A stretch of 15,914 nt of DNA from a virus. Lineage: Duplodnaviria; Heunggongvirae; Uroviricota; Caudoviricetes. Below are positions 1,169 to 12,189 of this stretch, piece after piece. Position numbers and translations under genes: made by a program. The stretch's first letter is position 1, and each line of letters starts with the position of its first letter. Under the pieces are notes generated by a model that did not search any database, had not been told where the DNA came from, and was given only the letters and a program-made list of their open reading frames with translations. Location of the stretch: positions 1 through 15,914 of the IMG/VR virus record IMGVR_UViG_2531839374_000021; one strand, written 5' to 3'.

Positions 1169-1938
1169 GGTAATGCTGCCAACTTACTGATTTAGTGTAT
1201 GATGGTGATTTTAAGGTGCTTGCGTGGCTTCCATTTCCATCAGATGTCCTTCCTGCTCCGCTACTGAAGGCGTGGTGCGTAACGGCAAAAAGCACTGCCG
1301 GACATCAGCGCTATCTCTGCTCTCATTGCCGTAAAACATGGCAACTACAGTTCACTTACACCGCCTCTCAGCCCGGTACGCACCAGAAAATCATTGATAT
1401 GGCCATGAATGGCGTCGGATGTCGCGCCAGTGCACGCAGTTATGGGCGTTGGCCTCAACACGGTTTTACGTCACTTAAAAAACTCAGGCCGCAGTCGGTA
1501 ACCTCGCGCATACAACCGGGCAGTGATGTGATTGTCTGCGCTGAAATGGACGAACAGTGGGGCTACGTCGGTGCTAAATCACGTCAGCGCTGGCTGTTTT
1601 ACGCGTATGACAGGATACGGAGGACGGTTGTGGCGCACGTCTTCGGTGAACGCACTCTGGCCATACTGGAGCGTCTTCTGAGCCTGCTGTCGGCCTTTGA
1701 GGTCGTGGTATGGATGACGGATGGCTGGCCGCTGTATGAATCACGCCTGAAGGGAAAGCTGCACGTTATCAGCAAGCGTTACACTCAGCGCATTGAGCGA
1801 CATAATCTGAATCTGAGACAACATCTGGCAAGGCTGGGACGGAAGTCACTGTCGTTCTCAAAATCGGTGGAGCTGCATGACAAGGTCATCGGGCATTATC
1901 TGAACATAAAACACTATCAGTAAGTTGGAGTCATTACC
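1169..1938 (+). mobile_element. IS1 (iso-IS1 variant), copy 1
   Basis: Ends ggtaatgctgccaacttactgatttagtg (1169-) and aagttggagtcattacc (-1938), about 770 bp, with insA/insB coding content. 9-bp flanks differ (cgaaaaaagc vs tcggatacc), so no target-site duplication. Confidence 0.9.
1195..1923 (+). pseudogene. IS1 insA-insB' region carrying two single-base insertions relative to copy 2
   Basis: Compared with the reverse complement of copy 2: ggcaaaaagcactgcc here vs ggcaaaagcactgcc (extra A near 1289), and cacgcagttatggg here vs cacgcattatggg (extra G near 1437). The native GTG start at 1237 then stops after about 36 codons; the 242-codon ORF starts from a GTG inside the terminal repeat and runs through insA and insB' frames. 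Confidence 0.6.
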
Positions 1939-2040
1939 TCGGATACCGGCCATAACTCAGCGGATAACGTCAACGGTGTGTATTACCGACCGCTGCAAAA
2001 ACTGATTAATGGCACCTGGTATAACGTAGCGAGTATTTAA
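1939..2040 (+). pseudogene. Orphan 3' end of an unidentified gene, cut by the IS1 right end
   Basis: Open frame continuous from the IS1 junction: ...SDTGHNSADNVNGVYYRPLQKLINGTWYNVASI-stop (TAA 2038-2040). No start codon; the frame runs into IS1. Confidence 0.3.
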
Positions 2041-2260
2041 CAATGTTGCATTTAAAAAATATTACTGCGGGTAATCCGAAAACTGCGGAACAATACCAGA
2101 TGACAAAAAATATGATATTACCTGGCTTTTTTGATATCCCTGACAATCCGTGTCCGGCAGGCGCGCGAAATCTCCACGAAACGGTGTTTGAAGTGGCACA
2201 CTGAATTTGGCCACCTGAACAGAGGTGATATGCTCACCTCAGAACAACACAGGTGCTCCA

Positions 2261-2563
2261 ATGAAAAAAAGAAATTTTAGCGCAGAGTTTAAACGCGAAT
2301 CCGCTCAACTGGTTGTTGACCAGAAATACACGGTGGCAGATGCCGCCAAAGCTATGGATGTTGGCCTTTCCACAATGACAAGATGGGGCAAACAACTGCG
2401 TGATGAGCGTCAGGGCAAAACACCAAAAGCCTCTCCGATAACACCAGAACAAATCGAAATACGTAAGCTGAGGAAAAAGCTACAACGCATTGAAATGGAG
2501 AATGAAATATTAAAAAAGGCTACCGCGCTCTTGATGTCAGACTCCCTGAACTGTTCTCGATAA
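2261..2563 (+). CDS. IS911 OrfA (helix-turn-helix / leucine-zipper transposase subunit)
   Basis: [21 protein letters not shown]...[22 protein letters not shown] at 2261 is preceded by aggtg. The six-frame ORF starts earlier at a GTG (2225), which I reject. Confidence 0.9.
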
Positions 2564-3429
2564 TCGGGAAACTCAGAGCGCATTATCCTGTGGTCACACT
2601 CTGCCAAGTGTTCGGGGTTCATCGCAGCAGCTACAGATACTGGAAAAACCGTCCTGAAAAACCAGACGGCAGACGGGCTGTATTACGCAGTCAGGTACTT
2701 GAGCTACATGGCATCAGCCATGGTTCGGCCGGAGCAAGAAGCATCGCCACAATGGCAACCCGGAGAGGCTACCAGATGGGACGCTGGCTTGCTGGCAGGC
2801 TCATGAAAGAGCTGGGGCTGGTCAGCTGTCAGCAGCCGACTCACCGGTATAAACGTGGTGGTCATGAACATGTTGCCATCCCTAACTACCTTGAAAGGCA
2901 GTTCGCCGTGACCGAGCCAAATCAGGTGTGGTGCGGTGATGTGACCTGTATCTGGACGGGTAAGCGCTGGGCGTACCTCGCCGTTGTTCTCGACCTGTTC
3001 GCAAGAAAACCAGTGGGCTGGGCCATGTCGTTCTCGCCGGACAGCAGGCTCACCATGAAAGCGCTGGAAATGGCATGGGAAACCCGTGGTAAGCCCGGCG
3101 GGGTGATGTTCCACAGCGATCAGGGCAGTCATTATACGAGCAGGCAGTTCCGGCAGTTATTGTGGCGATACCAGATCAGACAGAGTATGAGCCGGCGCGG
3201 AAACTGCTGGGATAACAGCCCAATGGAACGCTTCTTCAGGAGTCTGAAGAACGAATGGATGCCGGTGGTGGGTTACGTAAGCTTCAGCGAGGCAGCTCAC
3301 GCCATAACGGACTATATCGTTGGATATTACAGCGCACTAAGACCGCACGAATATAACGGTGGGTTACCCCCAAACGAATCGGAAAATCGATACTGGAAAA
3401 ACTCTAACTCGGTGGCCAGTTTTTGTTGA
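2518..3429 (+). CDS. IS911 OrfB frame (DDE integrase), expressed as an OrfAB fusion by programmed -1 frameshift
   Basis: Slippery heptamer A-AAA-AAG at 2512-2518. The -1 frame continues [13 protein letters not shown]...CGDVTCIW...HSDQGSHY...[11 protein letters not shown] to the stop at 3427-3429. Confidence 0.85.
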
Positions 3430-10865: not shown

Positions 10866-10880
10866 GGTAATGACTCCAAC

Positions 10881-11384
10881 TTACTGATAGTGTTTTATGT
10901 TCAGATAATGCACGATGACCTTGTCATGCAGCTCCACCGATTTTGAGAACGACAGTGACTTCCGTCCCAGCCTTGCCAGATGTTGTCTCAGATTCAGATT
11001 ATGTCGCTCAATGCGCTGAGTGTAACGCTTGCTGATAACGTGCAGCTTTCCCTTCAGGCGTGATTCATACAGCGGCCAGCCATCCGTCATCCATACCACG
11101 ACCTCAAAGGCCGACAGCAGGCTCAGAAGACGCTCCAGTGTGGCCAGAGTGCGTTCACCGAAGACGTGCGCCACAACCGTCCTCCGTATCCTGTCATACG
11201 CGTAAAACAGCCAGCGCTGACGTGATTTAGCACCGACGTAGCCCCACTGTTCGTCCATTTCAGCGCAGACAATCACATCACTGCCCGGTTGTATGCGCGA
11301 GGTTACCGACTGCGGCCTGAGTTTTTTAAGTGACGTAAAACCGTGTTGAGGCCAACGCCCATAATGCGTGCACTGGCGCGACAT
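10881..11384 (-). CDS. insB: IS1 insB' frame (expressed as InsAB' transposase via -1 frameshift)
   Basis: ORF in the -1 frame relative to insA, overlapping the A6C motif: ...[45 protein letters not shown]... Confidence 0.85.
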
Positions 11385-11578
11385 CCGACGCCATTCATGG
11401 CCATATCAATGATTTTCTGGTGCGTACCGGGCTGAGAGGCGGTGTAAGTGAACTGTAGTTGCCATGTTTTACGGCAATGAGAGCAGAGATAGCGCTGATG
11501 TCCGGCAGTGCTTTTGCCGTTACGCACCACGCCTTCAGTAGCGGAGCAGGAAGGACATCTGATGGAAATGGAAGCCAC
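11303..11578 (-). CDS. insA: IS1 InsA (zinc-finger / helix-turn-helix transposition inhibitor)
   Basis: 91 aa, [43 protein letters not shown]... with CxxC...CxxC motifs; GTG start. Confidence 0.85.
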
Positions 11579-12189
11579 GCAAGCACCTTAAAATCACCAT
11601 CATACACTAAATCAGTAAGTTGGCAGCATTACCCTTGCGTAGAAAGATAATCCGCATATTAATCTGACCATCATTTTATATAAGACGGCATATTTAAACG
11701 CATTATACAATATGGGTTATCTTTCTTTTGTAAATTGTCCAACCCGATGCAATGGCTATTTTGTTATTATTTGATGAATAATATCAGTGCGTCATAATTC
11801 AAGTTAATAACCTTAAGGGATACCAGTTATATTTAAACTAAATTAAAGTAATGAATAATTTTTTATAATATAAGGTAAATTAACAAAATGGCTTCGCATT
11901 TAACAATAACCGAATAGAAAACAACCATTTCGACATCAACAATCGCTTACATTCGCTTATATATTGACCACAACTGATACATCAGATTATGTGATGACTC
12001 GTGCTTAGATCAATTTTTGCAATCATTAGCAAAAAGATTAATAAACCATCTATATCAATTTATCCAACCTATTCTGCCGTTCAAGAAATCGCCGAACAGT
12101 TATTTTTAACAAATTTTTCTCTTCCCATTGACTTTCCCGGACACCTTGTCTGACCTAAGGTGCGCGAAAGCCACTTTTTCCTTCCTGAG

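Follow-up and report, generated by a model that had tools for sequence, protein, structure and literature searches.

Two inverted IS1 copies around gyrA and ubiG in a Shigella chromosome segment are probably independent insertions, each rearranged locally at one end

Several described systems are close to the arrangement analysed here, in which two copies of the insertion sequence (IS) IS1, called IS1-A and IS1-B, bracket the chromosomal genes gyrA and ubiG within a stretch of 15,914 nucleotides (the window; IMG/VR record IMGVR_UViG_2531839374_000021, positions 1 to 15,914). In the IS1 composite transposons Tn9 and Tn1681, two IS1 copies likewise bracket a segment of DNA. Adjacent deletions mediated by IS1, reportedly described by Reif and Saedler in 1975 and by Turlan and Chandler in 1995, have one fixed end and a variable loss of the flank, keep the IS and lose its target duplication. 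In the replicative intramolecular inversion, of which the IS1 inversion in Tn951 is said to have been described by Cornelis and Saedler in 1980 as a Shapiro-type example, the breakpoint lies exactly at the IS1 terminus and a copy of the duplication is carried, inverted, to the far end. Finally, in the IS-bounded chromosomal inversions of Shigella, copies of an expanded IS lie in opposite orientation on either side of chromosomal genes and could serve as sites of recombination (PMC8072062; PMC1550401). We propose, with a probability of about 85%, that IS1-A and IS1-B are two independent, vertically inherited insertions, each of which was then locally rearranged at the end that carries its right terminal inverted repeat (IRR; the left one is IRL), and that the pair is a by-product of the density of IS1.

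Compared with these systems, IS1-B matches the adjacent deletions exactly and shows nothing distinctive against them. IS1-A shares with the replicative inversion both the breakpoint at the IS1 terminus and the inverted copy of the duplication, but differs from it in having no second IS1, no new duplication and a loss of 4 nt by the GATATCGATATC palindrome. As in the Shigella inversions, chromosomal genes are enclosed by oppositely oriented copies of an expanded IS that could recombine; in contrast to them there is no inversion, the orientation being ancestral and invariant in nine assemblies. With respect to Tn9 and Tn1681, the pair differs by the lack of an outer duplication, by a native cargo that lies in situ, and by the acquisition of its two IS1 copies at different times.

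The two copies are as follows.

1169-1938, plus strand: IS1-A, 770 bp; IRL at 1169, IRR at 1938
10866-11633, minus strand: IS1-B, 768 bp; IRR at 10866, IRL at 11633; insA and insB' open

They are separated by 8,927 bp and inverted relative to each other, as repeat finding and global alignment agree, which bears out the preliminary description of two near-identical inverted copies. Global alignment reveals four differences between them, namely an A (1287) and a G (1439) that only IS1-A has, together with two substitutions (1664 and 1892). Both have the length and ends of the IS1 family (about 768 bp, with imperfect terminal inverted repeats of roughly 23 bp starting GGTAATG), their repeats being 23-24 nt long at 87-88%. 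The called products contain the Pfam domains Zn_ribbon_InsA, HTH_Tnp_IS1 and DDE_Tnp_IS1 (PF03811, PF12759, PF03400), and the A6C slippery motif is found in IS1-B at IS1 position 307, as expected of the family. In IS1-A, insA is broken by the extra bases at 1287 and 1439, which occur in the source draft only (the element has 768 bp in nine relatives). IS1-B is 91.3% identical, with zero gaps, to a copy annotated as IS1A, so the label "iso-IS1" is fair. A direct repeat of 8-9 bp was found immediately next to neither copy, again in agreement with the preliminary description; at IS1-B the duplication was lost with the adjacent deletion. The comparison of the outer flanks, suggested there as a way to find a swapped pair of target sites, was extended to all 9-bp flanks (outer/outer, inner/inner and outer/inner) and yielded no direct or reverse-complement pair.

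The independence of the two insertions is indicated by their surroundings and by their distribution. Both flanks of each IS1 come from a single locus, yfaL in the case of IS1-B and the prophage tfa/tail-fibre genes in the case of IS1-A. IS1-B is present in both sublineages of the relatives described below and IS1-A in one of them, the lineages without IS1-A keeping an empty tfa site; since IS1-B is common to lineages that lack IS1-A, the insertions are independent and of different age, IS1-A being the later one. In ordinary E. coli, which made up most of the matches of a UbiG look-up and served as the ancestral reference, the gene order is yfaA-gyrA(-)-ubiG(+)-yfaL(-)-ypaB-nrdA(+), and the block in the window has the identical orientation. 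The preliminary description attributed the junctions to IS1-mediated adjacent deletion or inversion, and this part holds, in the form of a 797-bp deletion of yfaL at IS1-B and a 194-bp inversion at IS1-A. A common event linking the two copies finds no support, given the absence of a swapped target pair, the single-gene flanks and the E. coli gene order.

The draft contig AMGB01000058.1 (GCA_000296305.1) ends in a sequence 100% identical to the window. None of the complete E. coli genomes carries the full arrangement, the best match (98.5% identity) covering core genes only, and an exact-pattern scan of one-genome-per-species GTDB contigs gave no match to the yfaL|IS1-B junction. When the YfaA' and YfaL fragments specific to the lineage were looked up as exact proteins, related loci at about 99.7% identity came up, among them three closed chromosomes: S. 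boydii ATCC 8700 (CP026731), S. flexneri serotype 6 64-5500 (CP026811) and S. boydii ATCC 9210 (CP011511). The window thus belongs to the mixed S. boydii / S. flexneri 6 cluster (cluster 1) of Shigella described previously (PMC7373316). Against nine relatives the draft has private 1-nt indels at 1287, 1439, 2104, 3498 and 11858, of which those at 1287, 2104, 3498 and 11858 are differences of homopolymer length (A5/A4, A6/A7, T6/T7 and T6/T7, respectively). The two extra bases of IS1-A are absent from the element in the nine relatives, so that its apparent frameshifts may be sequencing errors; such an error is likely for the homopolymer indel at 1287 and may account for the base at 1439, and the three other homopolymer indels may also be errors of the draft. 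One private 1-nt indel shortens orfA of IS600 to 95 aa.

Nine assemblies have both copies, namely the source with four other drafts, the three closed chromosomes and a 768-kb NCTC contig. In 9/9 of them the eight diagnostic junctions and the orientation of the block are identical, and in seven further assemblies with IS1-B alone the order yfaL'-IS1-nrdA is also ancestral. The IS1-A-specific substitution (IS1 position 494, window 1664) is common to the window and four relatives (loci L012-L015), which indicates a long vertical co-existence of the two copies without gene conversion. The preliminary description predicted that homologous recombination between the copies would invert the gyrA-ubiG block; this is true in principle, but there is zero sign of its occurrence in the genomes examined. 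The comparison of synteny it called for revealed no inversion polymorphism in the nine assemblies, four of them closed or near-closed, and the insertion sites are clearly independent, which is the very outcome it had named as speaking against its proposal. The pair offers, at most, a latent opportunity for an 8.9-kb inversion.

Nor does the bracketing of gyrA and ubiG call for a special explanation. A Shigella chromosome harbours 229-348 IS, of which IS1 is the commonest (46-73%; PMC7373316), and inversions and deletions driven by IS are the norm in this group (PMC8072062). According to a Poisson estimate, any one IS1 would have another in inverted orientation no more than 8.9 kb away on one side with a probability of 10-20%, and about 10-50 inverted pairs of IS1 neighbours within 9 kb are to be expected per Shigella genome. 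With such a density of IS1 an inverted pair around gyrA-ubiG is expected, and its bracketing of these genes coincidental.

The local rearrangement at IS1-B concerns the following features.

7975-10865, minus strand: yfaL pseudogene; 5' part deleted, frame interrupted
11634-11662, minus strand: first 29 nt of the yfaL coding sequence (MRIIFLRK...), cut off from the remaining yfaL by IS1-B and the 797-bp deletion
11663-12351, no strand: AT-rich yfaL-nrdA intergenic region, an IS1 hot spot

Alignment to E. coli with an intact yfaL (loci L001 and L023) places the insertion of IS1-B in codon 10 of yfaL, with 797 bp of the gene gone beside the IRR: the left flank stops at L023:5479 and the right flank resumes at 6277, both being yfaL and collinear, and the orientation of yfaL across IS1-B relative to nrdA is ancestral. 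In the sister sublineage (CP026866, CP026762, CP026814, CP026872, PTES01 and AMKC01; loci L022, L024, L028, L030, L043, L045, L048 and L051) the same junction between IRL and the 5' end of yfaL is found, and on the IRR side yfaL is 127 bp longer, which corresponds to a deletion of 670 bp. Altogether, the IRL junction is identical in 16 assemblies and the IRR meets yfaL at two positions 127 bp apart; in CP026839 (L047) IS1 is absent from the yfaL site. One junction is thus constant, the other flank is variably truncated and the IS is retained. A fixed IRL junction with two nested IRR endpoints is the classical signature of an IS-mediated adjacent deletion, and as judged from these junctions the loss of yfaL DNA was likely caused by the IS1 transposase in this manner.

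A different route to the yfaL deletion, and to this part of the arrangement only, would be RecA-dependent recombination of IS1-B with a second, directly oriented IS1 inside yfaL. This is unlikely, though not remote: the region is a hot spot with three independent IS1 insertions within 70 bp, and the RecA and transposase routes give an identical end product. Against it, the endpoints at 670 and 797 bp combined with one IRL junction would require two separate IS1 insertions of the same orientation, and no second IS1 copy inside yfaL is retained in the relatives compared.

The hot spot itself (11634-11702, in the AT-rich yfaL-nrdA spacer) includes, besides the site of IS1-B, an independent IS1 of E. 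coli FDAARGOS_944 with an intact 9-bp duplication at 11681-11689, 48 bp from the IS1-B site, and in CP026872 (L051) an independent IS1 variant, roughly 91% identical, with a 9-bp duplication at 11694-11702, 61 bp from that site. Within the yfaL remnant, the window has a private 18-bp in-frame deletion at 8890 in a GGATCGGGTGTTGGGTCA repeat and a private nonsense substitution at 10175, by which the 778-aa fragment of the relatives becomes two fragments of 523 and 215 aa. Exact-protein look-ups with these two YfaL fragments and with a 53-aa junction open reading frame (ORF) returned the source contig as the sole match; all three products are shaped by private mutations of the draft.

The second local rearrangement, at IS1-A, involves the prophage DNA on both sides of the element.

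555-1168, minus strand: prophage remnant; part of a gene for a tail-fibre N-terminal domain, followed by the 3' portion of the tail-fibre-assembly gene tfa (706-1168), interrupted by IS1-A
1161-1168, no strand: AAAAAAGC, first copy of the 8-bp target duplication of IS1-A; single in the uninterrupted allele (L051, L048) and in E. coli references
1939-2132, plus strand: inverted prophage piece, 194 bp; last 102 nt of the tail-fibre gene and first 90 nt of tfa; GCTTTTTT at 2125-2132
2133-2188, minus strand: piece of the tail-fibre gene, 56 bp; collinear with 555-1168 and natural neighbour of the inverted piece

The prophage tfa loci of E. coli VL40 and FDAARGOS_943 are 96-98% identical to the left flank of IS1-A (731-1168), and the match ends exactly at 1168. 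The reference DNA that directly adjoins this match corresponds, on the opposite strand, to 1939-2132, with 8 bp of the references covered by both matches: AAAAAAGC at 1161-1168 recurs in inverted form as GCTTTTTT at 2125-2132, displaced by 186 bp. From 2133 to 2188 the tail-fibre gene is resumed, collinear with the left flank of IS1-A. The same prophage without IS1-A is found in AMKC01000169 (L048) and CP026872 (L051), where AAAAAAGC occurs once and the next 186 bp are un-inverted; this uninterrupted allele reads ...CCGAAAAAAGC(C/T)AGG...GGTATCCGA-TATC-GATATCCC... and is joined to the same IS911 end. Compared with this ancestral allele, the joint at 2132/2133 lacks 4 nt (TATC), located within the GATATCGATATC palindrome, and exhibits neither a second, inverted IS1 nor a new duplication of 8-9 bp, as a classical replicative inversion would leave.

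IS1-A thus inserted into the prophage tfa with an 8-bp duplication, in the sublineage of the window only, and the 194 bp abutting its IRR, including one copy of the duplication, were then inverted in place, 4 nt disappearing where the flipped piece rejoins the tail-fibre gene. As the most likely mechanism of the inversion we suggest a one-ended intramolecular strand transfer: the 3'-OH of the IRR would attack the opposite strand at a distance of 194 bp, the displaced copy of the top strand would be degraded and the ends repaired, and, with repair in place of replication, no second IS1 copy would arise. Such a transfer would explain why the junction at the IRR is precise, why the far end has an inverted copy of the duplication, why the segment is present once and why a few nucleotides are missing. 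That the 194-bp flip is the footprint of a non-canonical, one-ended IS1 reaction resolved by repair is nevertheless a tentative and rather doubtful proposal.

Three other origins of the flip were considered and ruled out. It does not represent an invertible segment of the prophage's own invertase, as its breakpoint is the exact terminus of IS1 and it includes the IS1 duplication; recombination between short inverted repeats is ruled out by the junction sequence; and a replicative inversion that created IS1-B is ruled out by the flanks of IS1-B, both of which are yfaL. A hypothetical un-inverted junction of the IS1 IRR with AAAAAAGC and tfa gave zero matches among 5,426 complete E. coli genomes, and a search with the junction of tfa and the IS1 IRL matched only E. 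coli VL7S7 and an O121 strain. The IS1 of these two strains was rejected as an intermediate, being a separate insertion 167 bp beyond the IS1-A target, in the tail-fibre gene. VL7S7 (L032, 6229-6996) carries the same prophage beside sitABCD, with this independent IS1 and a deletion through to dicB; the tail-fibre/tfa region is a repeated target of IS1.

Four considerations weigh against the view that IS1-A and IS1-B are independent insertions with local rearrangements at their IRR ends. The mechanism put forward for the 194-bp flip would be a non-canonical one; the RecA route could equally have produced the yfaL deletion, the sequence being compatible with both routes; the short-read contigs (L005, L020) break inside IS1 and cannot report the orientation of the block; and a low-frequency or strain-specific inversion may exist beyond the nine assemblies.

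Three further explanations concern the arrangement as a whole. It is very improbable that the arrangement is itself the product of recombination between IS1-A and IS1-B, or of a replicative inversion that created one of them, with the block flipped at least once. The two copies are indeed inverted, near-identical and devoid of direct duplications; however, their flanks are neither exchanged nor paired in swapped or reverse-complement form, each copy sits within a single gene, the gyrA-ubiG block is neither changed nor variable in orientation and has the ancestral E. coli one, and IS1-B exists in lineages that never had IS1-A. Still less credible is an artefact of the draft assembly, with repeats misplaced or gaps filled wrongly: the source is a draft contig, and homopolymer length accounts for four of its private 1-nt indels, but the closed chromosomes, the 768-kb NCTC contig and the other drafts share its junctions, including the 194-bp inversion. 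The idea that the IS1 pair with its 8.9 kb is a composite transposon of the Tn9/Tn1681 type that carries gyrA-ubiG and moved as a unit can practically be dismissed, for although the segment is bracketed by two IS1 with intact outer ends and IS1-B retains open reading frames together with the A6C motif, no direct repeat of 8-9 bp is formed by the outer flanks GAAAAAAGC and CTTGCGTAG, the cargo is not foreign, the right half being in its native chromosomal context with yfaL continuing across IS1-B, the insertions are of different ages, and a plasmid search found no IS1-bounded copy of gyrA-ubiG, the matches that covered most of the query being records of chromosomal size or a chromosomal yfaA-gyrA-ubiG-yfaL context without the Shigella-type IS1 ends.

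The remaining features of the window are listed below.

1-554, plus strand: 3' part of an IS600 copy; runs off the end of the window and contig, IRR ends at 554
2189-3437, plus strand: IS911; terminal sequences read directly, HTH_Tnp_1 and rve domains
3438-3819, minus strand: 5' fragment of IS600 (IRL and orfA), interrupted by IS911
3807-4202, minus strand: yfaA' remnant, called as a 131-aa DUF2138 product
4351-6978, minus strand: gyrA, intact, 875 aa
7125-7847, plus strand: ubiG, intact, 240 aa
12081-12224, minus strand: ypaB, inside the yfaL-nrdA intergenic region
12352-14637, plus strand: nrdA, ancestral orientation
14784-15914, plus strand: nrdB, ancestral orientation

Gene and domain calls recovered between the IS1 copies all that had been reported there (IS911, the IS600 fragment, yfaA', gyrA, ubiG and the yfaL pseudogene); of the two genes that had been called essential, ubiG is only conditionally so. 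The translation of 1-554 is an IS3-family orfB with rve domains, and in the relatives the corresponding IS600 is complete, with an IS2-like insertion inside. A Caudo_TAP domain is found at the prophage tfa locus in the relatives. The junction of IS911 with the tail-fibre fragment is common to both sublineages. DNA derived from yfaA begins at 3820, the last codons and the stop of the yfaA' ORF lying in the IRL of IS600. A pair of 68-nt inverted repeats, 90% complementary, is located downstream of ubiG (7886-7953) and in the nrdA-nrdB spacer (14646-14713); in the E. coli relatives L027 and L029 this spacer has 87 bp more, and the match to the repeat extends there to ~83 nt. The repeat looks like a small intergenic repeat element, and an Rfam scan of the whole window, the repeat included, gave no match.

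The region between the prophage and gyrA is highly plastic among the related strains. Most of the loci L012-L019 and L021 carry an IS66-family element in tfa, with an 8-bp duplication at 1122-1129, and most of them a 1.3-kb IS3-family (IS2-like) element inside IS911 at ~2445-2450; both sites are empty in the window. Extra insertions of IS911 also occur. In CP026766 (L050) DNA matching 555-3825 of the window is absent and the IRR of IS600 is joined to yfaA', ~6 bp from the IS600 IRL junction of the window. CP026872 (L051) has a deletion from position 12 of IS911 to window 4240, in the flank of gyrA, with a 6-bp microhomology (GGCACA) at the joint, and its gyrA call is split into 267 + 590 aa. 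In AERO01000182.1 (L020, 9296-17702) the left end of IS911 (window 2189) is joined to yjjI-yjjW-...-prfC and the prophage is replaced, which points to a large IS911-mediated rearrangement or a misjoined contig. None of these regional variants involves recombination of IS1-A with IS1-B.

Taken as a whole, the locus is an instance of known Shigella IS biology and of ordinary genome decay (PMC7373316, PMC8072062), and beyond bookkeeping it has little significance. It provides a clear, datable example of erosion by IS1, in which the adhesin gene yfaL, yfaA and a prophage decay while gyrA, ubiG and nrdAB, which are essential or otherwise important, remain untouched, and it illustrates that two inverted IS copies on either side of essential genes can go without recombination throughout a whole cluster of Shigella. 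Only one feature is mildly unusual and of wider relevance, namely that the inversion beside IS1-A is not accompanied by a second IS1 copy. If the proposed origin of this inversion is true, IS1 could make short "silent" inversions of neighbouring DNA, of a kind usually overlooked where IS are numerous; if common, such inversions would escape surveys of rearrangements that use blocks of at least 5 kb.

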